IMG/VR virus record: IMGVR_UViG_3300037420_001739
Coordinates: 1-55,425 of that record
Length of the DNA stretch: 55,425 nt
Origin: a virus
Taxonomy: Duplodnaviria > Caudoviricetes
Direction: 5' to 3' (one strand)
In this document: positions 1 to 55,425 of the stretch, in pieces
Layout of the letters: every line of letters starts with the position of its first letter
Numbering within the stretch: the first letter of the stretch is position 1
Notes under the pieces: model-generated
Databases searched by the model: none
Told to the model about the DNA's origin: nothing
Seen by the model: only the letters and a program-made list of their open reading frames with translations
Position numbers and translations under genes: made by a program

Positions 1-152
1 ACAGTTTTCTTCTTTGGCATAACGGATCAATTTTGAATTAACATGAACTCTTTATAGATATCGTTGAATTGCTTTGCTGCATACTCCGCTAAAGAGCTAT
101 CACGGAAGCAAAGGCGGGAGCCGACAGACGAGTAGACGTAGTGGCAGTAGAC
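1..152. repeat. Terminal direct repeat (copy of 55274-55425); circular-genome assembly overlap
   Basis: 1-126 is identical to 55274-55399; the last 26 bp differ at 8 positions, all inside the DGR variable repeat. The gene stopping at 27 is followed by the start of the 54811-55293 gene in both copies. Confidence 0.95.
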
Positions 153-512
153 GCAAAACAGACGAAAGCCAGAACCCTGCATAAAGAACCAGGGATAATG
201 TTTTTCCTCACTATCGTCATCCCAATCAGGTATCCATCCTTCATTCAGAGCGGATGTAATTACAATCAATTTGCAGTAAGCATTTATAGAGCTGATATGC
301 TTATCCAGGAACTGGCTGTGTGATGAATGCAGCACGTCTGCAGGATCAATCCCTAAAACTGTACAGGCGTCTTCAAACGATTTTACTTTATCTGTGATGT
401 TCTCAGGAACAATTTTACCGAACAGCGATTCAAGCAATTGTTTGCCTTTATCATCAGCTTTTGTGAAGGCACTTAGCACTTCAGATCTGGAAGGTGTTTG
501 TAATTCTTGCAT
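27..512 (-). CDS. DGR target protein 1 (remote target, ~161 aa, unknown function)
   Basis: Likely start MQELQ at 512, just after the polymerase stop. Paralogous to 6696-7082 and 7092-7550 (VKSFEDAC..LG, ALNEGWxPDW, YPWF, GFRL..VGSRLCF). Contains the VR at 108-175. Confidence 0.9.
   Translation of the reverse strand: MQELQTPSRSEVLSAFTKADDKGKQLLESLFGKIVPENITDKVKSFEDACTVLGIDPADVLHSSHSQFLDKHISSINAYCKLIVITSALNEGWIPDWDDDSEEKHYPWFFMQGSGFRLFCVYCHYVYSSVGSRLCFRDSSLAEYAAKQFNDIYKEFMLIQN
108..175 (-). repeat. DGR variable repeat VR1
   Basis: 68-bp ungapped match to the TR at 6515-6582 with 15 mismatches, all at TR adenines (coding strand). Confidence 0.95.
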
Positions 513-522
513 TGTTATAGTT

Positions 523-2481
523 TTAATCTTTTTTATAGTAAAGTGTTTCGTAACTCTCTGCTTTGAGCGGTAGTCCTTTCGCCCAGGGAATTGGAGTTCC
601 CATGATTCTGTCAACTTCTTTTGTGGATCCTTTGCCTTCCGGCATTTCCATCACAACTTCATCATGCACATGCATCACTATTTTATAACCGGTTCTGTGC
701 AGTCTTAAAATCGCATCCGCTAGTACATCCCTTGCAACTGCCTGTACAATGTTCTCGACAAGCTTACCGCCGTAGGTCTGTTGTAAACTCCATTGCTTTG
801 TTGTTTGATCCATTCCTTCGTAGTACAGTGACATACCTCCAAACTTGTTTGCTCTAAGCTGTGGTTTCAAATAAGAAAGCCTTCTTTTGCTGGGAAGTTC
901 AATGAAGAGAATTCCTTTTTCCTTAATGAATCGTATGCCGTGTGAAATGGATGTTGGACCGTCAGTCATTGCGTTTAGTGCAGCATCTTCAACAGTGTTC
1001 CAGTAAGCAACGATCTTTTTATTCGCCTGGCGCCACATGGCAACAAGCTTTGGAAGTTCCTCTTCCGGAATGCGTTTTTCTTTTGGTGTTTTATTCCCGA
1101 TCTCAATTCGTATGATAGCAGCAGGTCCGCCCTGGTAACCAAGTGCCAGCTCTGACATTTTTCCTTTTTGCCTGAGATCACTTCCTTTCGTTACGGATTC
1201 AATCGGCACTTTGAACATTTGCGATGCAGAGGCTTCATAGATCTTTCCATGCGTGTTAAATACATCGAGTCTCCATTTTTCACCCGATAACCAGGCGATC
1301 ACTCTTGCTTCAATGGCTGCAAAGTCAGCAACGATAAAACGGTGACCTGGTGAAGCAACAAAGGCCGTGCGTACAAGCTGAGACAGCGTATCAGGAACAG
1401 AATCGAATAACAGTTCGAGCGAATCAAGATCACCGGCTCTCACCAACTGCCTTGCGATATCAAGGTCCTGCATCTCATTACGCGGAAGGTTTTGCACCTG
1501 TACCAATCTTCCTGCCCACCTGCCTGTCCTGTTAGCGCCATAGTATTGCAACAGTCCTCGAACACGGTTGTCGGGACAAATCGCTTTTGTCATGGCAACA
1601 TATTTCTTCACCGAGGTTTTGGACATTTCCTGTCGCAGCTCCAAAACTCTTTTTACGGTAGGATCAGTAATTGCGTCAATGGATTCCGCTATCGATGCTT
1701 TATTTAAACTCGGCGCATCTACCCCTTCATTCAGCAACCAATCTTTTAACTGCGCAACACTATTCGGGTTAGAAAGCCCTGTTATCTCGACAGCTTCCTG
1801 CGTTAATAGTTGCTGGTGCTGGTAATCGAGTTTAATAGCGTTGTGAACAAATTCAGGATCTACAAGGATGCCAGTATCGTTAATTGTTTGATCAATATGC
1901 CAAAGAATTTTTTCAGTTGTCGGAGGTTCAAAGAATGCGATCTTACCGCGAATAGCCTGTTCCACTTCAACATCTTTTACGCAGTATGCTTTGAACTGGT
2001 TCCATTTTTCAGGATTGTGCTGCGGCAGGTTCCTGGTTCTTCCGCCATTTACTTTTGTAGGCTTGCAGGGAAGAGAGAAATATTTGATCAGCGCTTTACC
2101 TGCTGCATCTTTTTGCGCTTGCAGTTTGAGGATCTTCGCCACAGCTTCCAGAGACAACGGGAGTCCAAGCATGGTAGATTTTGCCATGGTGCACTCCCAT
2201 TGATCAACAGGAAGAGACAGTTTGAAGTGTTTGCGAATACAAACACGTTCGAAATTGGCGTTGTGGGCTGTCTTTATTATACTCGGGTTAGTAAGTGCGT
2301 AAAGAATATGCGAAGGCAGTTGTTCGCCTTGTGCCAGGTCAACGATTTCAACAGGGTCGTTATTGAGAGAATAAGCAAACATCAGGATCTCGAAATCCGG
2401 TGCTTCCACGTAGCGGTATACACCCGACTTTGTAAGGTCAATTGATGAATAAGTTTCGATATCGATTCCTAGTGTTTGCAT
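523..2481 (-). CDS. polA: Phage family A DNA polymerase (3'-5' exonuclease plus polymerase domain)
   Basis: ExoI DIETYS, ExoII HNANFER, ExoIII YCVKD, motif A DFAAIEAR, motif B RQKGKMSELALGY, motif C HVHDE. Confidence 0.95.
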   Translation of the reverse strand: MQTLGIDIETYSSIDLTKSGVYRYVEAPDFEILMFAYSLNNDPVEIVDLAQGEQLPSHILYALTNPSIIKTAHNANFERVCIRKHFKLSLPVDQWECTMAKSTMLGLPLSLEAVAKILKLQAQKDAAGKALIKYFSLPCKPTKVNGGRTRNLPQHNPEKWNQFKAYCVKDVEVEQAIRGKIAFFEPPTTEKILWHIDQTINDTGILVDPEFVHNAIKLDYQHQQLLTQEAVEITGLSNPNSVAQLKDWLLNEGVDAPSLNKASIAESIDAITDPTVKRVLELRQEMSKTSVKKYVAMTKAICPDNRVRGLLQYYGANRTGRWAGRLVQVQNLPRNEMQDLDIARQLVRAGDLDSLELLFDSVPDTLSQLVRTAFVASPGHRFIVADFAAIEARVIAWLSGEKWRLDVFNTHGKIYEASASQMFKVPIESVTKGSDLRQKGKMSELALGYQGGPAAIIRIEIGNKTPKEKRIPEEELPKLVAMWRQANKKIVAYWNTVEDAALNAMTDGPTSISHGIRFIKEKGILFIELPSKRRLSYLKPQLRANKFGGMSLYYEGMDQTTKQWSLQQTYGGKLVENIVQAVARDVLADAILRLHRTGYKIVMHVHDEVVMEMPEGKGSTKEVDRIMGTPIPWAKGLPLKAESYETLYYKKD

Positions 2482-2494
2482 TGAATAAGTTGTT

Positions 2495-2539
2495 TGCCCC
2501 TGTAAAGGATTCGAACCTTTACAAGCACCATTCAGGGAA
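2495..2539 (-). other. tRNA-like minihelix (T-loop hairpin plus acceptor-like stem) upstream of polA
   Basis: Minus strand TCCCTG-AATGGTGCT-TGTAAAGG-TTCGAAT-CCTTTACA-GGGGCA; canonical TTCGAAT T-loop, no D or anticodon arm. Confidence 0.5.
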
Positions 2540-2806
2540 TTAAACCAATACGCCTCCTATCACCTCAATGCTTGCATTACAAGTGGTGTATTGCGGTTCG
2601 TCATTGACAAAATAACCGTGTCCACTTGCAGCCAGTTTCAATACTGGTGGCTGCGTTTTGTTCATGTTTTGCTGTACCAGTCCAATCAAGTGCGGAAGAG
2701 CCGCATCATATTCCGTTTTTGAAGGCCCGGTTAAAGTTGCGCTCTGATCTTCCAAAGCCTTAACGATCTTGTCTGGATTTCCGATAAAATATGCTGACCA
2801 TGACAT
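2540..2806 (-). CDS. Hypothetical protein
   Basis: ATG-started ORF in the co-oriented operon. Confidence 0.7.
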   Translation of the reverse strand: MSWSAYFIGNPDKIVKALEDQSATLTGPSKTEYDAALPHLIGLVQQNMNKTQPPVLKLAASGHGYFVNDEPQYTTCNASIEVIGGVLV

Positions 2807-2844
2807 AATATTTGCTCTGTTACCTATACACAGAAAGGTTTTAT

Positions 2845-3030
2845 TTATCTTTCTCCGGCTTCTTTTTTAAGTGCATCCAGGTTATCAATAATGTACCTTC
2901 TTACTTCATCATGATTACAACCTTCGTTGTATAACCAAAGCAGGTATTTGGCAGGCACATCGACCATAGCTTTGCCTCTGTATTTGCCAAACGGCATTGG
3001 TGAATTATCAGTGAGCGTTTGAGTAGTCAT
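2845..3030 (-). CDS. DUF3820-like small protein
   Basis: MPFGKYRGK...VPAKYLLWL signature. Confidence 0.8.
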   Translation of the reverse strand: MTTQTLTDNSPMPFGKYRGKAMVDVPAKYLLWLYNEGCNHDEVRRYIIDNLDALKKEAGER

Positions 3031-3031
3031 G

Positions 3032-3247
3032 TTAATAAGAATAAGGTTGATAGCCTAGCGTTGCTTGAATGAAAGTGTCAGCTTTCAGGTGCTTCTTTTC
3101 ATCACTATTGCACGTGCAACATTTAGAACACTCCTGACAGTTGTCGCATACTTCAGTCTTATGATGCCCGTATCGCTGACCGCAACCGGGACAAGAGATT
3201 TGTTCCTTTGGAACTCCATATTGTTTATCTATATCGTGTTTGGACAT
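3032..3247 (-). CDS. Small Cys-rich putative zinc-binding protein
   Basis: CPGC, CDNC, CSKCCTC motifs. Confidence 0.7.
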   Translation of the reverse strand: MSKHDIDKQYGVPKEQISCPGCGQRYGHHKTEVCDNCQECSKCCTCNSDEKKHLKADTFIQATLGYQPYSY

Positions 3248-3307
3248 AAAAGGAGTTTTAAAAAGGGAGCAGAGTAGAAACTCACTCCCGTATTATGAGA
3301 ACATTGT

Positions 3308-3862
3308 TTAAATCAGATCATCATCTTTCTCGGCAACCGCTTCGAAATCATCTTCTGCTCTGCTGCGTCCTCCGAGAGGTTCACCGTCAGCAAGCTTCTG
3401 AATATTGTTCAGGCCTGCACCGATGCCTTTGTTTCCGTTTTTGTTGAACGGATAAAGATTGATGGATGCACGAACGTAACAGCCGCTGTACAGATCCGCT
3501 TGATCCAGAATAGGATTCATATCCTTGTCGACAAGACCAGGCTTTTGTTTACACTTCACGTTAATGAAGTAGTGACCTTCATACGTTTCATCACCTTCTT
3601 TCTCTGTGTCGCCATCGCGAAGAGGAAGTTTCAGGTTGGCAGTCTTGCCGCCGAATACTTTTGTTTTCCCGTTCTCAATAGCGTTTTTCTCAGCGGCTTT
3701 GATCTTGTTAATCGTCACCTTGTCCGATTTCGGGATCAATAGAGCGCAGGAATAAAACTTCTGTCCGCCATCTTCCATTGATGTAGGTTCGAACAGGTGT
3801 GCGTAACTCAGTCTGCATTTGCCGGTTACGACTTTGGTTGATTGTTCTTTTACTTCAGCCAT
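3308..3862 (-). CDS. Single-stranded DNA-binding protein (DUF2815/gp2.5-like)
   Basis: RLSYAHLFEP, LRDGD, YSGCY, GLNNIQKLADGEPLGG and an acidic C-terminal tail; usual position upstream of polA. Confidence 0.9.
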   Translation of the reverse strand: MAEVKEQSTKVVTGKCRLSYAHLFEPTSMEDGGQKFYSCALLIPKSDKVTINKIKAAEKNAIENGKTKVFGGKTANLKLPLRDGDTEKEGDETYEGHYFINVKCKQKPGLVDKDMNPILDQADLYSGCYVRASINLYPFNKNGNKGIGAGLNNIQKLADGEPLGGRSRAEDDFEAVAEKDDDLI

Positions 3863-3888
3863 TTTTCTAATTTTTAAATGTTTACGAT

Positions 3889-5070
3889 TTATATTTCTGT
3901 TTCGACGTAAGCTTCTTCAAAGTCCTTGCGTGCAGCGTCCACACTATTCAATTCCTCACGCTTATCACTAAGCGGCGCAAGTGTTGGTTTGCCTTGTGGT
4001 TTGATAATTAGATCGGACAACACGAGAGAAAATTCTTTCTTGCCGATCGCTTTCTCCATTGCGGTAATACCAAGCAATTCACGTTTGTAAATGAGGTCTT
4101 CAGCAAAACCTTTTTCAACCAGGCGTTGAGCGACTGCAGTATCATCGGAATAAGTCCTGTTGCTTCTGCCTTCCACCAGCTTAAAGCCTGGCCACTTCTT
4201 ACCATTCAACACGGACTCACTCAATGCGTATTCATTCACACTTTTTAGCCAGCTGGTGAAGTTTGCAGACCTTGCAAGAATGTCCGCGATCTCTTCATCC
4301 GTTAATAATTCAGGAGTAGCAAAATCGTGACGTGCGATCTCGAGATTGTAATCAGCATTTGCCTTGCAAACTGCTTTTGCTTTACAGAACTGGCAGTGTG
4401 TACCTGGTTCAAATTCACCTTCACCAGCAAAGGCGAGAGCTGCTTTAGGTTTTAATTCTAATTCTGCCCAGGTGAGTAGATCATCAACTGATATTTCAAA
4501 CGTTGAGAAGTTATCGATACGTGGTTGAAAGATCGTCATGCGAACAGTATCGATATCGTAAGCGAAGATGAATTCCTTCAAAGCGCCTAATGCATATAGC
4601 ATCATTTGCTTATTGTTTTCTGCTGATACAAGCACGCCCTTGCCGTACTTCAGATCAATGATCTCCATCGTACCGTCAGCAATGATTACGCAGTCACCAG
4701 TACCAAAACCTTCAGGCACATACTCGGTAAGGTTTAACTTATGTTCGAGGTAGATCACTGCATCCCTGGTATGTGACTGTGCTTCGTAAAAGCGTTCCAG
4801 GACAAACACAGAATAAGATTCTGCATGTTCCTGCATTGCTGTGTCGAACAATTCATTCGCTTCGATCTTTTTCAGGTCCCGCTGGTAAACCTGTTTACTG
4901 ATCCGCTTTAGTTTATGTTTCAGGATTAGTTCACCAAGCGAGTGCGCAAGTGTGCCTTCCTCTGCAACCTTTCCCGCTTTGTCGGGGAACTGTTGTTCGA
5001 GTCTTGCCGAAGGCGTACACGATAACCAGCGATGCGCACCCGAAGGTGAAAGAATAGCGTGTGCACTCAT
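3889..5070 (-). CDS. DUF2800 / Cas4-like PD-(D/E)XK exonuclease
   Basis: HAILSPSGAHRWLSC, GFGTGD, IIDLKYGKG, QMMLYALG, HCQFCKAKAVC. Confidence 0.9.
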   Translation of the reverse strand: MSAHAILSPSGAHRWLSCTPSARLEQQFPDKAGKVAEEGTLAHSLGELILKHKLKRISKQVYQRDLKKIEANELFDTAMQEHAESYSVFVLERFYEAQSHTRDAVIYLEHKLNLTEYVPEGFGTGDCVIIADGTMEIIDLKYGKGVLVSAENNKQMMLYALGALKEFIFAYDIDTVRMTIFQPRIDNFSTFEISVDDLLTWAELELKPKAALAFAGEGEFEPGTHCQFCKAKAVCKANADYNLEIARHDFATPELLTDEEIADILARSANFTSWLKSVNEYALSESVLNGKKWPGFKLVEGRSNRTYSDDTAVAQRLVEKGFAEDLIYKRELLGITAMEKAIGKKEFSLVLSDLIIKPQGKPTLAPLSDKREELNSVDAARKDFEEAYVETEI

Positions 5071-5071
5071 G

Positions 5072-5452
5072 TTAAGCAGCTTTAATTTTATCGTATACTT
5101 CTTTGAATTGGTCCGGCTTAAACTCGCTGAGTTTTTTCACACCGTATTCGTCGAGAATTGCTTTCACCTTTTCCTGTTTACCCGCGTCTTTCTTTTCCAG
5201 GTATAGCTGGCGGATATCAGTAAAAGAAATCTCCTGAGCCGTTTCCTGTGCTGTTGCTTCCGGTGCCGCAGCTTGTGCAGGAGGTGTTTCTTTTACCTCT
5301 TCTTTTACAGGCTCTGTTTTTTGTGCTTTAGATGCCTTCGCAGGGGAAGCAGTCATTTCTTTAACGGGTGCCTGCTGGCCACCGGAAAAGCCTTTCAATA
5401 ATTCGATCACGGCCGGATCGAGAGTGATCGTGTGTCTAACTAAGATTTCCAT
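5072..5452 (-). CDS. Conserved phage protein usually preceding DUF2800 (Ala/Pro/Glu-rich linker, helical C-terminus)
   Basis: C-terminal VKAILDEYGVKKLSEFKP pattern and gene context; its start overlaps the RT stop. Confidence 0.75.
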   Translation of the reverse strand: MEILVRHTITLDPAVIELLKGFSGGQQAPVKEMTASPAKASKAQKTEPVKEEVKETPPAQAAAPEATAQETAQEISFTDIRQLYLEKKDAGKQEKVKAILDEYGVKKLSEFKPDQFKEVYDKIKAA

Positions 5453-6414
5453 GATTCTGATTTTTGATTTATGATTTTGTTTAAAAGGTTTTTACTGTTG
5501 CAGTGCTTCGCCCAGCCATAGTAGGAAACAACGGACTGCATTCTCGGCGCTTTAGCTACCATGCGGGCAAAACGTTTCTTAATGCTTTTACGCAGCAGTG
5601 TGTGCGTGTGATAAAACTTATAGCCTACGAAGTCGATACCTCTTGCATGAACCGGAAACACCTGGTAGTTTTCTTTTACAGTTAGTTTTAACCTGGTTGA
5701 TAAATAGATTCTGATCTCGGTAAGCAATTCATGCAGATGTTCTTTGTTATCGGAAAGGATCACGATATCATCTGCGTATCTGAAGTAATAACGGACTTGC
5801 ATTGTTTCTTTGATCCAGTGATCAAACCAGGTGAGGTAATAGTTAGCAAGGAACTGAGACAGATAATTTCCTATCGGTAATCCTTCTGCGCTATCGATCA
5901 CTTCATCCAGTAACCAAAGAAGATCTTCGTCTTTGAATTTTCTGCGAAGCAGGTTTTTAAGGATAGTGTGATCAACAGAAGGATAGAACTTTTTGATATC
6001 AAGCTTCAAACAATATTTCGTTGCTGCTTCATCGTTCAAAGCCTTTCTAAGATTTCTTGCAGCCTTGTGGATGCCTCTTTTTTTAATACAACTGTAAGTA
6101 TCAGCTGTGAATGTTTTAACGAACACCGGTTCGATGATATTCATCACGGCATGATGCAGGATGCGATCAGGGTAATAAGGAAGACGGAAGATCTCTCGCT
6201 CTTTCGGCTCGTAAATTTTAAACGTTGTGTACGGAGAGGTCTTGTAGGTTTTATTCTTTAGCGACTCATGAAGCGCTAGTAAATTCTCCTGCCAATTGCT
6301 TCTGTGTTGAATTACTCCGTACTGGCCAGACTTGCGCTTTGATGCTTTCAAGTCTGCCAGTTGGAGATTTTCCAGTGTGATAATCCGTCCGTATATATTG
6401 CTGATCCGTTTCAT
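5440..6414 (-). CDS. DGR reverse transcriptase
   Basis: DRILHHA, LKLDIKKFYPS, GLPIGNYLSQ (DGR-type GxxxSQ), RYADD, GIDFVGY. Likely start MKRISNIY at 6414 (ORF extends to 6426). Adjacent to the TR. Confidence 0.96.
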   Translation of the reverse strand: MKRISNIYGRIITLENLQLADLKASKRKSGQYGVIQHRSNWQENLLALHESLKNKTYKTSPYTTFKIYEPKEREIFRLPYYPDRILHHAVMNIIEPVFVKTFTADTYSCIKKRGIHKAARNLRKALNDEAATKYCLKLDIKKFYPSVDHTILKNLLRRKFKDEDLLWLLDEVIDSAEGLPIGNYLSQFLANYYLTWFDHWIKETMQVRYYFRYADDIVILSDNKEHLHELLTEIRIYLSTRLKLTVKENYQVFPVHARGIDFVGYKFYHTHTLLRKSIKKRFARMVAKAPRMQSVVSYYGWAKHCNSKNLLNKIINQKSESWKS

Positions 6415-6514
6415 TCTTTGCTTCAATTGAGTCGCGTTCCTTTGCAGTACCGGCGCCTCGTTTCTTATGTTTATTTTTTACCTTGTTGGTAGGGTCTGTA
6501 CTTTCAAAAATTTT

Positions 6515-6582
6515 GCAATTGCGGGAGCTGACATTCGAGTTGTTGTAGTTGTAGTTGACGTTATTCAGACGAAAGCCAGAAC
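6515..6582 (-). ncRNA. DGR template repeat (TR)
   Basis: Non-coding; reads TCT GGC TTT CGT CTG AAT AAC GTC AAC TAC AAC TAC AAC AAC TCG AAT GTC AGC TCC CGC AAT TGC. It has 19 adenines, and three VRs differ from it only at A. Confidence 0.95.
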
Positions 6583-6695
6583 TAAAGAGGCTCGAACTTC
6601 GCTACGTGTTAGTACACAACCTTAATATGATTCCATCCACGGTTCGGTTGTTTTGAACCAGATGATAAAGCGTCTTATCAGGCGTTTGATCTTTC

Positions 6696-7082
6696 TCACA
6701 ACAGCATGAACTCTTTGTATAACTTTTTTATCTGTGGTTGTTTCACTGCCCACTCAGCTAACTCCCTACTCCGGAAGCAAAGGCGGGAGCCGACATTCGA
6801 GCAGTCGTAGCCGTAGCTGACGCAAAACAGACGAAAGCCAGAACGGTTATCGCTATCTTTATTCAAATCCCACCAGCCGTAATATTTTGGTTGATTCGTG
6901 TCCTGCCAATTTGGTTTCCAGTCCCCGTTCAAAGCCTGGACAATGATCATCAGTTTTCCTATTGCGATGAGTGCTTTTGCATGCTGCTTTGGAAAGCCAA
7001 CAACTTTAGGAGTTGCCTTCGCAGGATCCAGTTTGAGCGCCTTACATGCGGCCTCGAATGTTTTGATTTTTGGTTGTGACAT
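6696..7082 (-). CDS. DGR target protein 2 (128 aa)
   Basis: Paralog of targets 1 and 3; contains the VR at 6777-6844. Confidence 0.92.
   Translation of the reverse strand: MSQPKIKTFEAACKALKLDPAKATPKVVGFPKQHAKALIAIGKLMIIVQALNGDWKPNWQDTNQPKYYGWWDLNKDSDNRSGFRLFCVSYGYDCSNVGSRLCFRSRELAEWAVKQPQIKKLYKEFMLL
6777..6844 (-). repeat. DGR variable repeat VR2
   Basis: 68-bp match to the TR with 13 mismatches, all at TR adenines. Confidence 0.95.
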
Positions 7083-7091
7083 TGTAGATGA

Positions 7092-7550
7092 TTATGCAGT
7101 GAAGAATTGTTTATACAGGTCGAAGAATTGTGCAGCTGCGTATTCCGCTACTTCCCTTTTTTGGAAGCAAAGGCGGGAGCCGACATTCGAGTGGCCGTAG
7201 AGGTAGCGGACGTCAACCAGACGAAAGCCAGGTTTATTCATGTAAAACCAAGGGTAATACTTAGGTTCGTTAGAATTATTCCAATCCGGTGTCCATCCTT
7301 CGTTCAATGCCTTTATGATCACTTTTAGTTTACGATAGGCAATTTCATCTTCACTCATTTCATCATACCCAATTATTTCTGAACTGATGCCTAACACTTC
7401 ACACGCATCACCGTAGGTTTTAACGCGATCAGTAATTTTTTGTTGAAAGAATTTTTCACCGAATGTATCGTGAAGCATAGCCTTGAATTCTGATGAAGCA
7501 GTAGAGTAAAGCTTCAAGGCATTCTTTTCGTCAATCTGTAAATTTTTCAT
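7092..7550 (-). CDS. DGR target protein 3 (152 aa)
   Basis: Paralog of targets 1 and 2; contains the VR at 7167-7231. Confidence 0.92.
   Translation of the reverse strand: MKNLQIDEKNALKLYSTASSEFKAMLHDTFGEKFFQQKITDRVKTYGDACEVLGISSEIIGYDEMSEDEIAYRKLKVIIKALNEGWTPDWNNSNEPKYYPWFYMNKPGFRLVDVRYLYGHSNVGSRLCFQKREVAEYAAAQFFDLYKQFFTA
7167..7231 (-). repeat. DGR variable repeat VR3
   Basis: 65-bp match to the TR with 13 mismatches, all at TR adenines. Confidence 0.95.
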
Positions 7551-7594
7551 CTTGTATATTTGTACTATCGCTTGAATAAATTTTGTTTAGGTGA

Positions 7595-7628
7595 AAAAGC
7601 CCGGTTTCCTCCACGTTGCCGGGCTTTT
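7595..7628. terminator. Likely bidirectional intrinsic terminator upstream of the DGR cassette
   Basis: AAAAGCCCGG-N14-CCGGGCTTTT, with T tracts on both strands. Confidence 0.65.
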
Positions 7629-7758
7629 AATTTTACTCTCCTTCACTTTCCGTTTCTTCTTCTGTGCTTTCTGTTGGTACCGATGGATCGATGTCATCCG
7701 GACGATTGAAATGTTTGTTCATGTTTCTTGTTTTTGAATTATGAATAAAAAAGGATCT

Positions 7759-8049
7759 CTATTTTTCGATGAGCATCTGGCTCAGTTCAGAAACCTCCTT
7801 CAACCTTCTCTCATTAGCACTGTAGTAAACGAACCTTCCTTCCCTGGTTGTTTTTACAAATCCCTGCTTTCTCAGGATGGCCAGATGCGAAGAGGCTACT
7901 GATTGTTCCAGGCCTAAATCTTTATACAGTTGGGTAACACAAACCTTCCCATGTCTGAGCAAGTATCCATAGATCTCCCTACGGAGCTTGTGGTTGATGG
8001 CTCTGAGCACTTGTGAGGCTTCCTTGATTTGGGTTATCTGTATTTGCAT
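7759..8049 (-). CDS. ArsR/SmtB-family HTH transcriptional regulator
   Basis: LRAINHKLRREI, CVTQLY..LGLEQSVASSHLAILRKQGFVKTTREGRFVYY; likely start MQIQ at 8049. Confidence 0.9.
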   Translation of the reverse strand: MQIQITQIKEASQVLRAINHKLRREIYGYLLRHGKVCVTQLYKDLGLEQSVASSHLAILRKQGFVKTTREGRFVYYSANERRLKEVSELSQMLIEK

Positions 8050-8297
8050 AAAATGTTTTTTTAAAAGAGGCCAACGTGGAAACATCGGCCGTTGATTTGG
8101 TTAGGACATTTCACATCCTATCTAACGATTGCTAGTATGAAAAAGAACTTGATTTCAATTGATGCCGGAAGTAGAAACAACCGGCCGATATGTTTAACAA
8201 CAATTCGAGAGCGATTCAACCAGGCTAACGGCTTCCTCACCTATTGCTTTCACTAATTCTTTCCTTGCATCCCGTGCCTGATCTTTTAATTCAGTAA

Positions 8298-8489
8298 TCA
8301 ACTTTTTGAAACCTCCCACGTTTCTACCGGATAATCCTTCTCGGATGGAATATCCGATTGCTGTATCATGGTCGGTTTGCGATAGTATTTTATAGAGTCG
8401 TTGATATTTCTCGTTGTTGGTTTCTTTTCCTTGTATGGAATAGCCCATGTTATCAGGTAAAGAATTCCTATGATCAGTATTATTTCCAT
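8298..8489 (-). CDS. Small membrane protein (overlaps alternative ORF 8194-8658)
   Basis: N-terminal hydrophobic helix; which of the two overlapping frames is used is uncertain. Confidence 0.45.
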   Translation of the reverse strand: MEIILIIGILYLITWAIPYKEKKPTTRNINDSIKYYRKPTMIQQSDIPSEKDYPVETWEVSKS

Positions 8490-8834
8490 ATAGCGATTGG
8501 TTTTGTTTCATTGTTACTGTCCTTTTTAGTATACCTCCTTTGCCTACTTCCCACCTGTAAATCTCATCACCGCATGGACTGAAATGAGCTACGATCATGA
8601 ACAATACCGTACTGAGTATAGTAAGTGCTACAGGTAGTAAAATCCATATTGGAGGCATAGTGTTTGGTTTTTAATAACCGAGATTTTTTTGCGGCCCTAC
8701 ATGGCCTTTTTTCATTACAGGATAATTACCACACTTGTCCTTTCTATAGAGTATTCCACAGTTACACGCCTTAGACGTTATCCCATAAGCAATAAGGCCC
8801 ACGATCAACATTCTTTTTATAAGAAATCGGATGA

Positions 8835-9038
8835 TCATTCGTAAACAGGGTAACGGGTGATTAATAATTCACAGCTTCTGATCAGGTGCGCATCACACAA
8901 AGCGTCCGTAAACGTGTACCGCATGGCGCGGGACATTTCCAGCAGCTTTTCACAGCTTTTCAATTGCTTCATCGTAACACAACTATTGATCGTGTTAAGG
9001 ATGAAATAGTACACTTCCGCAGCGTTGATCTTTTTCAT
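8835..9038 (-). CDS. Hypothetical protein
   Basis: ATGA overlap with the upstream gene. Confidence 0.65.
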   Translation of the reverse strand: MKKINAAEVYYFILNTINSCVTMKQLKSCEKLLEMSRAMRYTFTDALCDAHLIRSCELLITRYPVYE

Positions 9039-9349
9039 CGTTTACCAAGGATTTTATGTTTAACACAAGCCTTTATAATCTTCCTTCTGATCACTGCAGT
9101 CATACCCGCATTTACAATCCACTTGCCTTCTTTAGGACTATAGAACCAGGTATGCTGAACTTCACTCACATTAACTGCGTGCATGAATAAATGCCAGATG
9201 ATTATAGAGCATAGAAGAGCAGCAGCAATGAATATTAATTCTATTGAGAAGCGGATCAGCAAACCCTTTGCACACTTCTTTGCATCCTTAATGAAGGAAT
9301 GCTCAAACTGCACTGGCTCGAAGCTGTAAGGAATAGATGTTGTGCTCAT
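9035..9349 (-). CDS. Hypothetical membrane protein
   Basis: Likely start MSTTS at 9349 (ATGA coupling); one transmembrane segment. Confidence 0.65.
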   Translation of the reverse strand: MSTTSIPYSFEPVQFEHSFIKDAKKCAKGLLIRFSIELIFIAAALLCSIIIWHLFMHAVNVSEVQHTWFYSPKEGKWIVNAGMTAVIRRKIIKACVKHKILGKR

Positions 9350-9660
9350 GGTTGGACCTCCTTTTCGCCGGTTGCTTTGGCAATGAGGTTTTTTACTTGT
9401 TCTACAAATGGCAAGTCCAATCCGCAAACATCAAAATCCGTTTCTGTGTAGAGTTCTAGCAACTTGGTAAGGGATTCGAGCAATTCAGGTGCAGCAGCTA
9501 TTAGTCGGGCGTTCACTTTCCAAGCATACCTGCTTGCTTGGCGACCCGTGTAACCTTTGGAAGGCTCTTGACAAATAACCAGTTTGTCACTTACAACCCC
9601 TGGAAAATCTAATTCATCTTCAGGAGCGAACCACGGCCCTGGTGTGTGTTGTGTTTTCAT
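9346..9660 (-). CDS. Conserved phage early protein
   Basis: HTPGPW...NARLIAAAPELLE motif common in phage early regions. Confidence 0.8.
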   Translation of the reverse strand: MKTQHTPGPWFAPEDELDFPGVVSDKLVICQEPSKGYTGRQASRYAWKVNARLIAAAPELLESLTKLLELYTETDFDVCGLDLPFVEQVKNLIAKATGEKEVQP

Positions 9661-9911
9661 ACTACATCCCTCCTTTCTTTTTCCTCTTCCATCATTCTTT
9701 CAATTTCTTCATTCACATCCTGTACACGGGAAGAATGTTCAGCATATAGTTTACCGTTATGAAGGGTGTATTTATCTCCATGTTGATCGGTGCCGATATT
9801 GCCGTTCATTGTTACATGAAACCAAAAACCATTGCGGCTGTAGGAGATTACATTTCCGTTGCGCATTGCGGCGGAGCTTTGTGATTTGGTTTGAGAAGTG
9901 TAGTTTTGCAT
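9657..9911 (-). CDS. Hypothetical protein
   Basis: ATGA coupling with the downstream gene. Confidence 0.65.
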   Translation of the reverse strand: MQNYTSQTKSQSSAAMRNGNVISYSRNGFWFHVTMNGNIGTDQHGDKYTLHNGKLYAEHSSRVQDVNEEIERMMEEEKERRDVV

Positions 9912-9978
9912 CTGAGAAACTTTTTAAGTTTTTTAAGTGGTCAGTTTCGATTTCCAGTCAGAGCTGACCATTTTCTTT

Positions 9979-10161
9979 TTATTTCATCTTCGAATCAGCA
10001 TCCATAATTCTTTGCAGCTTCTTTTTCTTTCTGTCAGAGGGAGCACTTAACTGCTCCACCCTAGACAAAAAGTTTTTCAATTTTGGGAGATTAATATTCC
10101 CTTGATTGATAGTATTTAGAAGTAGACTGGCCTCACTTGATATCTGCTTTTCTATTTCCAC
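9979..10161 (-). CDS. Hypothetical protein
   Basis: Short ORF downstream of the cro-like gene. Confidence 0.5.
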   Translation of the reverse strand: MEIEKQISSEASLLLNTINQGNINLPKLKNFLSRVEQLSAPSDRKKKKLQRIMDADSKMK

Positions 10162-10243
10162 TTTTGCGAAATTTTTTGTTAACAGTTTCGGGTCTGATTA
10201 AAAGTTTTTATATTAGGATAGTAGATTTGTTGCATCTCGGACG

Positions 10244-10459
10244 TTAGGCGGCTACTCCATTCTTTTCCAGAATCTCTGAATCTTTCAATCCAGTAATCTT
10301 TCGAATTTCCACCAGTGCTGCAGCCTTTGTGAGTTCGTCATCGTTATCCTTGATATACCGCATGAGTGTTTGATCTGACACACCCAAGGCGATCGCAATT
10401 TCAAGTCGCCTCACCGGTTCGGCTTTGATTAGTGATAAGGCTTTTTGTGTGAGTTTCAT
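10244..10459 (-). CDS. Cro-like HTH regulator
   Basis: RLEIAIALGVSDQTLMRYI helix-turn-helix; divergent from the cI-like gene; likely start MKLT at 10459. Confidence 0.75.
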   Translation of the reverse strand: MKLTQKALSLIKAEPVRRLEIAIALGVSDQTLMRYIKDNDDELTKAAALVEIRKITGLKDSEILEKNGVAA

Positions 10460-10562
10460 TTGTTGAATATTATATTTGACTATCAAAAACAACAATGCGA
10501 ATATACGGTCAATGTTTACTAAAAGTCAATAGTCAACTTAGGCCTTAACAATCTTTTAACAC
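10460..10562. promoter_or_regulatory. Divergent lysis/lysogeny switch region
   Basis: Bacteroidota -7-like boxes TATATTTG (+, 10471) and TATATTCG (-, ~10498-10505); repeated TTGAC/GTCAA half-sites. Confidence 0.55.
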
Positions 10563-11075
10563 ATGTTAACTATGCCCACTGATGGCGCCATTCTCAAGGC
10601 CTTTATTGATCAATCCAGAATTCGACCTGTACGCATTTACACGGCGATGAAAATTAGTAAACAGGCATTTTATAAGCTATATAACAGTAAGGAGTTTGAG
10701 CTGGAGACAATTAGAAAAATAGAACAGGCGGTTGGTAAGCCCTGGGACGAAATAAGGTTGACTAATGTTGACGTCAACGTTTCCAATGAAACGGCCAAAC
10801 TGCCACTCGAAGACTTGGAAAAGAAGCAATCTTTAGAAAGAAGTATTGAAAATCTGACACGAACAGGAGAGATCAATGCTCACAACGAGACGATAAGAGC
10901 GGAGAATGAGAAAATGAGAATTGAAAATGATAAGATAACGGTTGAAAGTATCCGGCGTTTGGTTGATTTGTTGGAAGAAAAATACGGCAAACGTGTTGGG
11001 CCAACACTTCCGCCAGTAGGAACACCTGGAACCAAAAACCATAACCCTCGAAAACAAAAAAAGCCGGCCCAATAG
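10563..11075 (+). CDS. CI-like repressor (N-terminal HTH, coiled-coil C-terminus)
   Basis: IYTAMKISKQAFYKLY HTH-like segment; divergent from cro and near the integrase; no S24 peptidase motif visible. Confidence 0.6.
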   Translation: MLTMPTDGAILKAFIDQSRIRPVRIYTAMKISKQAFYKLYNSKEFELETIRKIEQAVGKPWDEIRLTNVDVNVSNETAKLPLEDLEKKQSLERSIENLTRTGEINAHNETIRAENEKMRIENDKITVESIRRLVDLLEEKYGKRVGPTLPPVGTPGTKNHNPRKQKKPAQ

Positions 11076-11107
11076 TGACCAGCTTTTTCTACTAACCCCA
11101 TAAGGAA

Positions 11108-11305
11108 TTAGTATTCACTTAAATTGAATAGCAAATCCATCACCTCGTCAGATACGAATTGAAACTTGTCTTCATGGCTCTGAATGGAGGGTGAAAACTT
11201 CGGACAGAATGAAAACATGCAATTCGATAAAAGACATCTGTTTTGATCTGGACATGCATCGCATAGTTGGACCTGCGCAATTTGCGTCTTATGGGACTGA
11301 TTCAT
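11108..11305 (-). CDS. Hypothetical Cys-rich protein
   Basis: ATG ORF with CxxC; no family recognised. Confidence 0.4.
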   Translation of the reverse strand: MNQSHKTQIAQVQLCDACPDQNRCLLSNCMFSFCPKFSPSIQSHEDKFQFVSDEVMDLLFNLSEY

Positions 11306-11621
11306 AGTGCTCTAAATTTGGTTCTGCCACCTGAATAATCCGTGTTTCGCCGATTAATCAGGACGTCGAAAATAGTACAGTTTACTAAAATGTTTAGTAA
11401 TTTTAAAGGAAATAGTTTTACACAGGGTTTTGAACAAAGTTGTTCACATTCTTCAAAAGTGTTCCAGTAAGTTTCATTCATGTGTTTTTAGGTTTAGAGG
11501 TTTCTGTTGAGGCAATCGTATTAGAAGGGCCGGCGAAAGTAAACGCAATTTCAATACATTAAGTGGTTTCACGTATACCCTTTCTCAACATACAACATTA
11601 ATTAACAATAGGTAAGTGTTT

Positions 11622-12824
11622 TTAATTAATCCCTTCGTCAAGTCTAGGCATTTTTGCTTTGATTAATTCCCTTGTAAGGTTTTTATGTTCACCAGTATAT
11701 GTAGCAGTAACCCTTTCATCTGAATGCCGAAAATGTTCCTTTGCGAGTGACAGAAGATTGTCAGCCCCTTCCCTCCTTTTAAGTCTTACTAAATCATCAG
11801 CAGAAAGTTTTTTTAGCGAGTATTGATCGACGTTTAGTTTCAATCCTTTCTTTACAATATTATTCCACCACAACGTTGTACTGTTGGAGTGCATCTTGTT
11901 TTTGCCGGGCATAAACATATTACCCTTACCTGCGAAGATGTAAAATTCAGGATCGTATTTTTCAAGCTTCATTTCCATTAATAGATCCATCACCCATTCA
12001 GGAATAGCAACATCACTTTCCACTCCGTTTTTTGTGATCTCTGCAGGCAATCTAAATACGCCTTGCAGTTTGTGCAACATATTAATTTTGATCTGTGTAA
12101 TTTCTTTTGGTCTGATGCCGCATCCATAAATCAGGGAGAGAAAACGAAAATAATTTCTGTGATATTCTTTGATGTGTGATACGATTGTGATTCGTTCATC
12201 TTGTGTTGGCGGCCGGTGCGCTACCTTCTTTAAAGTGTCTCTCGTTTTTATATCCCTGATCAAATTGGATTCCATTATATCCCACTCTACCAGTTCAGAA
12301 ACAAGTCCGGACAAAAAAGATCTGTAAGCATTGTAGCCATCGTTACCCAATTTGCGATCAGCAATCACCTGCTCCAGAATCAATTTAAAATCGATCTTCC
12401 TAAACTCCCTTATTGGCTTTGTGATTCCGATGTTATCGCACGCATTTTTAAGGTATTTGATTTTGGAAGAATAATCCTGCGATGTTTTGTATTTCCATGT
12501 TGGCTTCAATTTCAGTTCAGCAAAATCCAATGCATTGGAGAACTGCATTTGCTGTAATTCTTCAAGATCAATTTCCTTTTTTAGTTTTGAAGGATATGTA
12601 TTAGTAACAGGGTTCCATCCCCTTTCCAACCGTAGTTTAAGTGCAGTGATCATGGAGTTGGCAGAAAGGACCCGCTCTTTGTAATTGGAGATCGTATTTA
12701 AATCTGCTTTACGAGAGATTTGATGCCACTTACCGGCATAAAAAAACCGGAATCTCACGCGCCATGTTTTGTCCATGTCTGAAGATTCCGGATTCTTTGG
12801 ATAAATCGTTAGTTCTGACCACAT
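11622..12824 (-). CDS. int: Tyrosine integrase
   Basis: Catalytic R (GIRPKEI), K (TKNG), YSLKK box (Bacteroidota-type variant of HxxR), RHSD and TATY; adjacent to attP. Confidence 0.9.
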   Translation of the reverse strand: MWSELTIYPKNPESSDMDKTWRVRFRFFYAGKWHQISRKADLNTISNYKERVLSANSMITALKLRLERGWNPVTNTYPSKLKKEIDLEELQQMQFSNALDFAELKLKPTWKYKTSQDYSSKIKYLKNACDNIGITKPIREFRKIDFKLILEQVIADRKLGNDGYNAYRSFLSGLVSELVEWDIMESNLIRDIKTRDTLKKVAHRPPTQDERITIVSHIKEYHRNYFRFLSLIYGCGIRPKEITQIKINMLHKLQGVFRLPAEITKNGVESDVAIPEWVMDLLMEMKLEKYDPEFYIFAGKGNMFMPGKNKMHSNSTTLWWNNIVKKGLKLNVDQYSLKKLSADDLVRLKRREGADNLLSLAKEHFRHSDERVTATYTGEHKNLTRELIKAKMPRLDEGIN

Positions 12825-48895: not shown

Positions 48896-48967
48896 TTAGA
48901 TTTGAAGATGGTGGAATACGAAAATAACATCTGTAACCCGCCTCTTCTGAAGTAGTTGCCAACGTTT

Positions 48968-54810: not shown

Positions 54811-55293
54811 TCATACAGCTTTCAGCTTTCTCACTTTTAAACGATCAATAATTTCAAGCGGCGTAAGAAGTTGGTAAGCCTCTGACAAAGCTTCCATGAT
54901 CATATCATCCATGATACCAGGCGACCGGTATTCGATCGTTCCTATTTGCAGATCGAAGTCGGTTTTCTTCATTAGTACATCGTAATCGTACTTCAGTTCT
55001 TCTATCTCTTCATCCTTCTCTTTGAATTTATCGTCGAGGCCTGTTTTTAATTCCTCCATTTCATCTTTCGTTTCTTCACGTTCAGTTGCGATATTTCCTT
55101 CAATAGCTTCCAAAAACTCAAGAGCCTCTTCCTGGTTAATGTCTTCAATGATCGTATCTACTGAAAGGATCGAGCGCAGGTGCTTGATGTTTTCATCGAG
55201 TGAAAGAATTTTCTTTCCTAACGTCATGTGCGCAGCGAGTGTTTCAACTCCGGTTCTATACAAATTATCTTTTACAGTTTTCTTCTTTGGCAT
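54811..55293 (-). CDS. Acidic coiled-coil hypothetical protein
   Basis: 160 aa ATG ORF directly downstream of DGR target 1 in the circular map. Confidence 0.75.
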   Translation of the reverse strand: MPKKKTVKDNLYRTGVETLAAHMTLGKKILSLDENIKHLRSILSVDTIIEDINQEEALEFLEAIEGNIATEREETKDEMEELKTGLDDKFKEKDEEIEELKYDYDVLMKKTDFDLQIGTIEYRSPGIMDDMIMEALSEAYQLLTPLEIIDRLKVRKLKAV

Positions 55294-55425
55294 AACGGAT
55301 CAATTTTGAATTAACATGAACTCTTTATAGATATCGTTGAATTGCTTTGCTGCATACTCCGCTAAAGAGCTATCACGGAAGCAAAGGCGGGAGCCGACAT
55401 TCGAGTCGTGGTAGCCGTAGTAGAC
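55274..55425. repeat. Terminal repeat copy carrying an alternative VR1 allele
   Basis: The VR part (55381-55425) has 8 mismatches to the TR, all at adenines; it encodes VYYGYHDSNVGSRLC versus VYCHYVYSSVGSRLC at the left end. Confidence 0.93.

Follow-up and report, generated by a model that had tools for sequence, protein, structure and literature searches.

The window, by which we mean the whole 55,425-nt stretch of phage DNA that was analysed, carries a DGR on its minus strand, with one reverse transcriptase (RT) gene, one template repeat (TR) and three variable repeats (VRs) that each lie in one of three small paralogous genes. The RT gene (5440..6426, minus) is intact and encodes 328 aa, with YADD and IGNYLSQ in the translation. 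The TR (6515..6582, minus) is 68 nt long, contains 19 adenines and reads SGFRLNNVNYNYNNSNVSSRNC in the frame of the targets, and its last 18 nt (6515-6532, minus) make up an IMH*-like end. Between the TR and the RT start lies an 88-nt spacer (6427..6514, minus) which, from its position only and by analogy with BPP-1, is presumed to be the 3' part of the DGR RNA. Two of the targets stand in tandem beside the TR, the short paralog T2 (6696..7082, minus, 128 aa) and the long paralog T3 (7092..7550, minus, 152 aa), and the long paralog T1 (27..512, minus, 161 aa) is a remote target that follows the DNA polymerase gene (523-2481) directly. An earlier sequence-only reading had assigned the system to 5440-7550; this interval holds the RT, the TR, T2 and T3, but VR1 and its gene (27-512) lie outside it.

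When each VR was compared with the TR, the mismatches fell almost entirely on template adenines. VR1 in T1 (108-175) has 15 mismatches and VR2 in T2 (6777-6844) has 13, all at adenines with 0 at other bases, and VR3 in T3 (7167-7234) has 13 at adenines and 3 at other bases. The earlier count of one RT, one 68-nt TR and three VRs with 15, 13 and 13 adenine mismatches was therefore correct, except that it had placed every mismatch on an adenine. The three further mismatches of VR3 occupy just the first 3 bases at its 5' edge, so the VR3 homology is really 65 nt long (7167-7231 for the adenine-only part). By a hypergeometric calculation, the probability that all mismatches would fall on adenines by chance is 9e-12 when there are 15 and 9e-10 when there are 13. 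Scanning both strands of the whole window recovered the TR and exactly three VRs, and a laxer 36-nt scan added only a partial copy at the end of the window. As the sequence-only reading had proposed, this is a genuine multi-target DGR, and the three small paralogs are its sole targets in the genome.

The diversity that can be generated is somewhat smaller than first stated. At three of the 19 adenines (that of AGC and the AA of the last AAT), all VRs carry the same substitution (G and CT, respectively). Because these fixed adenines sit in 22 nt common to the VRs, about 16 adenines in 9 codons vary, and each target can have 4^16 DNA variants, or ~2.7e9 protein variants, instead of the 4^19 calculated from all 19. 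The varying codons are seven AAY and two TAC, whose conversion to stop is impossible. The common 22-nt block, GTCGGCTCCCGCCTTTGCTTCC (minus strand; 104..125 for VR1, 6773-6794 for VR2 and 7163-7184 for VR3), differs from the TR at the three adenines and at its last 4 bases. Every synonymous site in it is identical across the three paralogs, and synonymous sites differ elsewhere in the genes, which makes the block a candidate for the homing signal (IMH) of the VRs. Each VR is followed by 25-27 codons, its end lying 75-81 nt upstream of the stop codon, and the regions downstream of the VRs, inspected for hairpins, folded no better than shuffles (z -0.47, +0.61 and -0.64).

The RT ORF matched Pfam RVT_1 (E 6e-21) and PHROG 1423 (reverse transcriptase, E 7e-124), and it scored under the cut-off for group II, retron and DRT models. 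It carries the catalytic YADD and, in motif 4, the GxxxSQ that is given for DGR-type RTs in PMC12386605. Its closest nucleotide relatives are the RTs of crAss-like phages, with 65-69% identity over 150-575 nt. A conserved ORF of ~100 aa (PHROG 19665) directly follows the RT in 59 of 65 related loci and is absent from this window, so this copy of the cassette is atypical. Among the cassette ORFs, here and in 6 relatives, none had a Pfam match to an Avd or HRDC accessory gene. It could be supposed, then, that the small proteins themselves substitute for Avd or act as replication regulators, and that the variable loop is a by-product. T2 has a pI of 9.6, and it occupies the position that avd has in BPP-1. 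However, family members are found in RT-less complete genomes and far from the RT (T1 and the LoVEphage homolog), and the strongly conserved non-stop AAY/TAC codons of the template argue for selected protein diversity. In addition, Avd/HRDC genes are not universal in DGRs, since the crAss-like RT relatives mostly lack Avd and most Zeta crAss-like DGRs lack both, according to the same paper (PMC12386605). We consider this explanation highly improbable. The specific proposal of T2 as a basic Avd-like protein was rejected, as short paralogs are mostly acidic (median pI 5.04, with pI >8 in 6 of 42).

The retroelement is working, that is, active or recently active, as shown by allele differences in VR1. 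Two VR1 alleles, compared from contigs, differ at 11 positions, all at template adenines, within 895 otherwise identical bases. The second allele is also visible in the window itself: the genome is circular, and its terminal overlap (55274..55425, minus) with positions 1-152 is identical for 126 nt and then shows the first 8 of the 11 differences. The same second allele was recovered from an independent rhizosphere run (X6), where all 11 sites are the only differences in 895 bases. The comparison between samples refers to VR1, as X6 has no contig over 5671-8100 and another run (X7) has gaps. Considering all of this, we are nearly certain that an active DGR acts on these three genes. In X7, contigs break at 7167 and restart at 7206, inside VR3, which is no more than a weak hint.

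All three targets belong to PHROG 11581, a profile of unknown function (E 1.8e-33 for T1, 2.2e-19 for T2 and 1.6e-30 for T3), and T1 is 46-47% identical to T2 and T3. Their sizes (161, 128 and 152 aa) agree with the 128-161 aa reported earlier, and so does the lack of a membrane segment or signal-like N-terminus (maximum 19-residue hydropathy 0.57-1.43). In 69 homologs, the hypervariable stretch corresponds to residues 112-122 and is flanked by conserved blocks. AlphaFold2 models had a pLDDT of 83.5 for T2 and 80.9 for T3, with low confidence in the VR (about 46-58). The minimal CLec-like fold that had been suggested was not recovered: Foldseek against the PDB with these two models, in which the VR is poorly predicted, returned no match at E <0.8 and listed no lectin. 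A PDB sequence-profile search with the targets gave 0 matches up to E 10, and the targets had no match in Pfam and NCBIfam, although the Pfam blank says little about the fold because Pfam also misses the lectin part of the LoVEphage collar fibre and of the cr56_1 tail protein. Foldseek against BFVD with the T3 model matched uncharacterised phage proteins only, some from crAss-like viruses, and the ESM Atlas matches were 'hypothetical protein' clusters only. The family itself is large, with about 5,000 (5,040) clusters at 50% identity, and is seen in prophages of soil, water and gut Bacteroidota. The scaffold also works without diversification, since a member is present in two complete phage genomes that have no RT.

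The phage is temperate, with an integrase at 11622-12824, siphovirus-like and from soil Bacteroidota, probably Chitinophagaceae. By annotation of the neighbouring genes, T1-T3 lie inside a long leftward early/replication operon in lytic orientation, in line with the sequence-only reading. General regulatory scans gave little: an Rfam search of 1-12000 matched no family, and scans with models ill-suited to Bacteroidota found 20 sigma-70 promoter sites against 21.3 in shuffles and 12 terminator sites against 10.2.

The association of the family with the retroelement holds well beyond this phage. When we carried out the family survey for RT/TR linkage that had been suggested, the RT was just downstream in 70 of 80 family loci in IMG/VR, and 68 of these 70 had A-biased TR/VR pairs. 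The RT loci represent 46 RT clusters at 95% identity, of which 39 have two tandem targets, four have three and three have one. Likewise, 52 of 79 loci in bacterial genomes have the RT, with adenine bias in 51 and at least two targets in 48. The recurrent order is long paralog, short paralog, template and RT, and this cassette is kept while the flanking genes change between loci. In seven other loci sampled, six of them with annotated flanks, the flanks include primase and methyltransferase genes, Mu-type transposase A/B, an exonuclease-FtsK fusion, an HNH endonuclease and an anti-repressor, and no tail genes were found in the flanks sampled. Members also occur in LoVEphage, BI-TP1, PV4-TP1 and BT-TP2, whose recorded hosts are Bacteroides or Phocaeicola strains, and homologs in named phages lie among small early genes or close to polymerase/primase genes.

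The system has in part been described already, as the second DGR target of LoVEphage (MW660583, 33613-34197) belongs to this family. It is a full-length homolog (hhalign 99.5%, E 1.4e-22, 149 columns; 28% identity by tblastn), and calling the present system undescribed was thus an overstatement. The LoVEphage target is diversified in the same way, with a VR of 113 nt and 19 mismatches, all at template adenines, and is non-structural, with methyltransferases, radical-SAM genes and an RtcB ligase as neighbours. It differs in being a single remote secondary target, whose TR and RT adjoin the tail collar fibre, the primary target. In contrast, here we find a dedicated cassette with two tandem paralogs by the TR and RT and a remote third, VRs of 68 nt and no tail target. 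Judging from the description by Benler et al. and from the two references that Dahlman 2025 cites for LoVEphage, presumably Benler 2021 and the LoVEphage paper, the LoVEphage target fits the Quimbyvirus target, described as lectin-containing and 'nested within defense-related genes' (Benler et al. 2021, PMC8008677). A second VR close to counter-defence genes is reported for four further prophage species (Dahlman et al. 2025).

These observations also bear on whether the targets are adhesins, that is, virion-associated or released proteins that dock on the tail or capsid and whose surface binding is tuned by the DGR as in BPP-1. Gene position may be compatible with a virion or released protein as well. 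With few exceptions, the phage DGR targets characterised so far are receptor-binding proteins (Roux 2021), a particle could be decorated by a small dimer whose variable loop is exposed, and in LoVEphage one template serves both the collar fibre and the family member, so the variable loop could serve a similar ligand class. However, the similarity of the family to that fibre is limited to the templated 38 residues. In the present genome, whole-window scans found no TR match in the tail genes, as stated before, and the structural module (~18.5-48.4 kb) has 0. Neither in this genome nor in relatives are the targets fused to tail genes or placed beside them, which again agrees with the sequence-only reading; the surrounding genes serve replication, transposition, methylation or regulation here and in 6 of the 7 relatives with annotated flanks, the exception being locus L073 with a minor-head-protein-like gene ~3 kb beyond the RT, and the early-gene setting of the named-phage homologs points the same way. 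No fibre/baseplate fusion was seen in the best 150 of 5,040 clusters, where the long forms were two-copy fusions only, or in a search for longer forms, which found no fusion to other domains and one longer protein, a tandem double. We therefore regard the adhesin explanation as decidedly improbable.

Another possibility is that the proteins work on the lysogen side, being expressed from the prophage and recognising proteins of superinfecting phages (anticipatory immunity or superinfection exclusion). The phage is temperate, and the cassette tends to be found near lysogeny or regulatory genes: an HTH gene is directly upstream in loci L007 and L008, and an integrase (L006) or an anti-repressor (L059) is near in others. 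The sensors diversified by DGRs in cellular conflict systems offer a precedent, and they are reportedly large multidomain proteins. What those systems (Dore et al. 2024, PMC10907252) have in common with ours is the idea that a DGR diversifies a protein for recognition inside the cell during conflict, and the case for DGR-based recognition proteins in immunity is argued by Belalov et al. 2023. In contrast to the conflict-system sensors, which are encoded by bacteria, the proteins here are phage-encoded, of 128-161 aa, with no effector domain and no detected match to C-type lectins. Moreover, an effector domain is neither fused nor adjacent, and the genes belong to a leftward early operon in lytic orientation and are not an isolated moron beside a repressor. 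Taken together, the lysogen-side explanation appears unlikely.

The long and the short paralog are predicted to pair. For the T3+T2 complex, the predicted ipSAE was 0.79 (0.78, 0.82 and 0.79 in separate runs) and the best of three controls gave 0.00; at least 85% of contacts were common to the runs, and partner pLDDT was at least 86. Of 80 solved complexes, 58 attained this ipSAE mark, as did 2 of 110 mismatched pairs; the benchmark is a rough one, since the alignments were custom. The predicted interface comprises the conserved P88, W90, 99-106 and 124-126 and part of each VR, and it includes several randomised residues, which is odd for a stable interface. Because a test of this kind can also be passed by paralogs or close cousins, the ipSAE value does not separate a heterodimer from a homodimer. 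Natural fusions are also found: in 16 of the best 150 representative clusters, a single chain has two copies of the family, detected in two (P0122 and P0123) by a regular expression for the C-terminal motif and in the rest by HMMER stretches, and P0123 is a long and a short paralog joined by a linker. From the complex prediction and these fusions, the long and short paralogs most likely pair into a dimer.

Overall, we slightly favour the explanation that an Avd-less, active DGR diversifies cytoplasmic paired binders from the early operon. In this mechanism, the RT would copy an RNA with the 68-nt template and place random nucleotides opposite adenines, and the cDNA would be swapped in for the homologous 65-68 nt of the three paralogous genes, with homing possibly guided by the GC-rich 22-nt end that is common to the VRs and absent from the template. 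The targets would form a dedicated family of small soluble early-operon proteins, distinct from virion receptor-binding proteins, and each would be a helical scaffold bearing one hypervariable loop. In the long/short dimer, two variable loops at or beside the interface could form a two-chain binder with combinatorial specificity. That T1-T3 are non-virion, cytoplasmic and dimeric binders seems reasonably probable to us. Their most likely use would be the binding of variable host or rival-phage proteins in the infected cell, for counter-defence or host takeover; a counter-defence role specifically, suggested by gene position and the general nature of DGR targets, is tentative and rather doubtful.

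Phage DGRs have been read almost entirely as host-range devices on tail fibres, and to our knowledge DGRs are the only natural targeted protein hypermutation outside vertebrate immunity. Here, the sole clients of a common cassette are small soluble early proteins. If intracellular binding is true, phages would possess a means of recognition that is both anticipatory and combinatorial, for use in the arms race within the cell. A further and unlikely extension would be a self-contained 'antibody-like' module in thousands of Bacteroidota phages, namely a cytoplasmic heterodimer of the long and short chains on a scaffold unrelated to the C-type lectin fold, with one loop in each chain continuously randomised by the DGR and ~10^18 combinatorial specificities for intracellular use against variable host defence or rival-phage proteins; if this reading is true, no non-lectin DGR scaffold and no two-chain DGR binder would have preceded it. 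In addition, a scaffold of 128-160 aa with one 9-codon variable loop and possible dimerization would be a compact chassis for the evolution of binders in vivo. The dedicated cassette, the paired paralogs and the scaffold with no detectable C-type lectin match are apparently unpublished, as the cassette and the pairing were not found described in the literature, in which the target clusters of Roux 2021 and the tables of Wu 2018 may well list the family.

Like the BPP-1 DGR (mtd-avd-TR-brt), the present system combines a template with an RT and adenine-specific mutagenic homing towards the 3' portion of a gene, and both have a GC-rich conserved VR end unlike the template end and an AAY-rich, stop-proof template. 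In BPP-1, Avd is present and the diversified protein is the trimeric tip of a tail fibre with a C-type lectin fold (PMC6199706); here the three targets are small and non-structural, there is no Avd, the template is shorter and 25-27 codons follow the VR. Some other diversified phage proteins were set aside as relatives. Hankyphage was considered, as two loci have Mu-type transposases upstream, and was rejected because its target, with 2,225 residues, is a different sort of protein, and the Bacuni phages and tentaclins have different target families. The crAss-like DGRs (e.g. cr56_1, NC_055890) contain the nearest RT relatives of our system at the nucleotide level and likewise have Bacteroidota hosts, but their target, as in cr56_1, is encoded beside a tail fibre gene and is a tail protein with a sulfatase/Mtd-like annotation. 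Distant members of the family are also carried by crAss-like genomes, among their small early genes.

This phage carries a genuine DGR variant that is active, widespread and unusual in what it diversifies. On the minus strand, which holds nearly all genes of the window, the order is T3 (7550-7092), T2 (7082-6696), the template repeat (TR, 6582-6515; 68 nt with 19 adenines), an 88-nt spacer and an intact reverse transcriptase (RT, 6426-5440; 328 aa), which carries YADD and IGNYLSQ and matches RVT_1. The third paralog, T1 (512-27, minus strand), follows immediately after the polymerase gene, and with its variable repeat it falls outside the interval 5440-7550 given in the sequence-only reading. 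When both strands of the whole window were scanned with the TR, exactly three other copies were found, none of them in the tail genes, in line with the sequence-only reading; a laxer 36-nt scan added only a partial copy at the record's end. VR1 (108-175, within T1) and VR2 (6777-6844) differ from the TR at 15 and 13 positions, respectively, all at template adenines, and VR3 (7167-7234) has 13 mismatches at adenines and three non-adenine mismatches. The latter are restricted to its first three bases, so the VR3 copy is 65 nt in effect; the anatomy described earlier (RT, 68-bp TR, three VRs) holds up, save for the third target's coordinates and the number of adenines that vary. The chance of every mismatch hitting the 19 adenines among 68 positions is 9e-12 for 15 mismatches and 9e-10 for 13. 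The cassette has no Avd gene, which is commonly absent from crAss-like RT relatives too, according to PMC12386605. A 208-nt gap (7551-7758) separates T3 from an ArsR-type wHTH gene (7759-8085). On the minus strand of this gap, at about 7597-7632, a GC stem precedes a T run, so the cassette may be transcribed as a separate unit.

Activity in nature is seen as adenine-restricted allelic variation. The window is an entire IMG/VR virus record of 55,425 bases, whose ends overlap by 152 nt (1-152 versus 55274-55425), and the genome is therefore circular with about 55,273 bp; the IMG/VR entry gives a linear topology. In the terminal overlap, the first 126 bases are the same as the record start and are followed by eight VR1 differences, each at a TR adenine, and VR1 polymorphism is probably the reason why the assembly broke here. 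Metagenome runs were compared with the window as contigs, not reads. A 2,362-nt contig from an independent rhizosphere run (X6) spans window positions 1-895 with 11 differences (127, 128, 134, 136, 137, 142, 143, 145, 154, 155 and 157), all 11 inside VR1 and all 11 at template-adenine positions, and the first eight are the allele of the terminal overlap. Thus, two VR1 alleles differ solely at DGR-mutated sites, and the surrounding DNA is otherwise identical. In another run (X7), contigs end at 7167 and resume at 7206, both within VR3, which is a weak hint of VR3 heterogeneity.

In DGRs of the BPP-1 type, reverse transcription makes adenine-specific errors and the cDNA homes to its target. By analogy, the template RNA here would be reverse-transcribed with such errors, and the cDNA would home to each VR via a 22-nt end common to all three, GTCGGCTCCCGCCTTTGCTTCC. 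This block is the same in the three target genes at every synonymous site, and outside it the paralogs (46-47% protein identity) differ in synonymous codons. Within it fall three TR adenines (one in AGC and two in the final AAT) that are swapped for the same bases (G and CT) in VR1-VR3. By its appearance, the block looks like a candidate initiation-of-mutagenic-homing (IMH) site, of which the TR has a variant form. According to Wu et al., the 3' boundary of mutagenesis sits just upstream of IMH-type sites and multiple targets of one DGR differ in their 5' boundaries, and the shorter VR3 homology fits such target-specific boundaries. Since these three adenines are substituted alike in every VR, about 16 adenines vary rather than the 19 first counted, in nine codons (seven AAY and two TAC), and each target has 4^16 DNA variants, not 4^19, and about 2.7e9 protein variants, with a stop codon impossible. 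Small hairpins can be drawn right after each VR, and their folding was no better than that of shuffled sequence.

The targets belong to a stand-alone family of small proteins. T1, T2 and T3 have 161, 128 and 152 aa, and no transmembrane stretch or signal-like start was seen, in agreement with the sequence-only reading. All three match PHROG 11581 (annotated as unknown function), and none matched Pfam or NCBIfam. A word-indexed search gave 354 homologs, and an exhaustive profile search gave 5,040 representative clusters at E<=1e-3, 3,270 at 1e-10 and 636 at 1e-30. An alignment of 69 homologs shows hypervariability at residues 112-122, where both TAC positions vary in the Y/C/F/S manner; strongly conserved blocks (ALNEGWxPDW, KYYPWF, GSRLCF and a C-terminal helix) lie on either side. 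In AlphaFold models (pLDDT 80.9 for T3 and 83.5 for T2), the scaffold is helical and the variable segment, modelled with low confidence, contains a short beta hairpin. Foldseek searches of both models matched no PDB chain, a PDB profile search was empty, and BFVD matches were only uncharacterised phage proteins; the scaffold thus could not be assigned to the C-type lectin fold, although such a fold may have escaped these searches because the variable part is poorly modelled.

The cassette recurs widely. IMG/VR held 497 stretches encoding relatives, and in the best 80 of these 497, an RT homolog (51-70% identical) lies 200-600 nt downstream on the same strand at 70 loci. Calling a TR/VR pair by at least five adenine mismatches and at most two others, we found a TR between the last target and the RT in 68 of the 70; in the two misses (L045 and L066), the gap is wider than the TR search space. 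The 70 loci form 46 RT clusters at 95% identity, with two tandem targets in 39, three in 4 and one in 3, and two-target tandems have a long copy first and then a short copy missing the first ~37 residues. In a separate collection of bacterial genomes, an RT was found in 52 of 79 loci, adenine bias in 51 of these 52 and at least two targets in 48; almost all are from Bacteroidota (Chitinophagaceae, Sphingobacteriales, Flavobacteriales, Cytophagales and Bacteroidales), with a few MAGs of other labels. In some cases, a locus lacking the RT is a remote copy on a contig that also carries a cassette (L104 with L093, L132 with L111). Ten IMG/VR loci lack an RT close by: for one it lies elsewhere in the record, and the records of seven are incomplete. 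The other two, L036 (299 kb, terminal repeats, jumbo size) and L062 (46 kb), are complete records with a family member and no RT homolog anywhere, so the scaffold exists undiversified as well; an accessory role of the targets in the retroelement itself is very improbable. In 59 of 65 related cassettes, the RT stop is overlapped or followed by a conserved ORF of about 100 aa (PHROG 19665, annotated as unknown function; for example, L007:8004-8306), and tblastn with one copy found this ORF in 46 of the 79 bacterial-genome loci. Neither Pfam nor NCBIfam matched it, and it is missing from the window and from the two relatives closest to the window (L005 and L006); it may be an accessory factor other than Avd.

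Since a long copy is typically paired in tandem with a short one, the complex of T3 and T2 was predicted, with its own alignment for each chain. The ipSAE was 0.79 (runs 0.78, 0.82 and 0.79) versus 0.00 for the best of three controls, with at least 85% of contacts in common between runs and partner pLDDT of at least 86; solved complexes reached this ipSAE mark in 58 of 80 cases and mismatched pairs in 2 of 110, figures that are rough here because custom alignments were used, and paralogs may score as homodimers too. The predicted interface is near-symmetric and comprises the long helix, the C-terminus, two conserved stretches (WxPDW and YYPWF) and portions of both variable segments (T3 112, 115 and 118-126; T2 82, 86, 89 and 93-100). 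Natural fusions give independent support for pairing. Single polypeptides with two matched copies (247-353 aa, including P0122-P0128) make up 16 of the best 150 representative clusters; two of them (P0122 and P0123) have two GSRLCF-like motifs by regex, and the count for the other 14 is from HMMER's two matched stretches alone. In P0123, a linker of 18 residues joins a long copy to a short one, and the sole longer homolog from the word-indexed search is such a two-copy protein. The model and the fusions together support a putative dimer of the long and short paralogs.

When named phage genomes were searched with T3, weak matches (27-31% identity) were obtained in LoVEphage, Phocaeicola phage PV4-TP1, Bacteroides phage BI-TP1, Dulem virus 41 and two crAss-like phages. 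Alignment to the family profile covers the full length of the LoVEphage protein (33613-34197; probability 99.5%, E 1.4e-22), which is a DGR target, with a 113-nt repeat whose 19 differences from the template near the RT (48292-49107) are all at adenines; the genes around it encode methyltransferases for cytosine and for adenine, radical-SAM proteins and the ligase RtcB. However, the LoVEphage RT and template adjoin a tail collar fibre, whereas the window has no tail target and its VRs are 68 nt. The small protein and the fibre have 38 templated residues in common (62% identity) and nothing else, and the family profile did not match the fibre (probability 1.1%), so the variable segment is a portable insert of differing length, carried in a scaffold of the family's own. 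By description, the LoVEphage protein fits the Quimbyvirus target of Benler et al. 2021 (PMC8008677). Dahlman et al. 2025 give two references for LoVEphage, presumably Benler 2021 and the paper on that phage itself, and describe a second repeat close to counter-defence genes in four prophage species. The idea and one family member are therefore already in print, and the earlier claim of an undescribed system is right only in part: in the literature searched, whose scope did not include the supplementary target clusters of Roux et al. 2021, we found no description of a family-dedicated cassette without a tail target in the genome, of the long/short tandem as the norm, predicted pairing or natural fusions, or of the family's size and spread well beyond the gut. 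Roux et al. 2021 class viral DGR targets mostly as tail proteins and regard uncharacterised VR domains as probable novel forms of lectin. Among named genomes, the nearest RT relatives are in crAss-like phages, but there the DGR acts on a tail protein with a sulfatase/Mtd-like annotation, unlike the non-structural targets here. Two crAss-like genomes of the Suoliviridae, cr109_1 (L090, 1871-2278) and cr56_1 (5091-5267), encode distant family members near their left end, where the surrounding genes are small and lack annotation, and the DGR of cr56_1 targets a tail protein.

The gene context of the targets is non-structural here and elsewhere. In the window, PHROG matches place tape measure, major head, portal and terminase genes at about 31.6-48.4 kb and a replication block of helicase (49308-50714), primase-helicase (51246-53705) and methyltransferase (53778-54668) genes, continued past the record junction by DNA polymerase (523-2481), a Gp2.5/Enc34-type ssDNA-binding protein (3308-3862) and a DUF2800 exonuclease (3889-5070). 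In relatives, conservation is limited to the cassette; the flanks of seven sampled loci vary (primase and methyltransferase, Mu-type transposase A and B, an exonuclease-FtsK fusion, HNH endonuclease, anti-repressor) and hold no tail genes, with a minor-head-like gene about 3 kb away in one. That the targets are virion or released adhesins is improbable. A tyrosine integrase is encoded at 11622-12824, and a role of the targets in lysogen immunity is unlikely, though less so than an adhesin. The proteins would be cytoplasmic and, given their orientation in an operon starting at a divergent HTH pair near 10.5 kb, probably expressed early, and they may bind partners in intracellular conflict; the initial reading of them as intracellular binders for counter-defence or host takeover is plausible. 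Metagenome runs containing the genome are from soil and rhizosphere, and the closest bacterial-genome homologs are from Agriterribacter, Niastella and other Chitinophagaceae. A 589-aa head-morphogenesis/minor-head protein (42606-44375, minus strand) has a further match, over residues 194-346 (E 3e-76), to a PHROG labelled Bxa ADP-ribosyl transferase. In four runs, the sole match of short high-depth contigs (depth up to 164) is the 39-nt intergenic stretch 3843-3881 between the ssDNA-binding and DUF2800 genes, with five differences and unrelated sequence on both sides, indicating a short element common to other, more abundant genomes.
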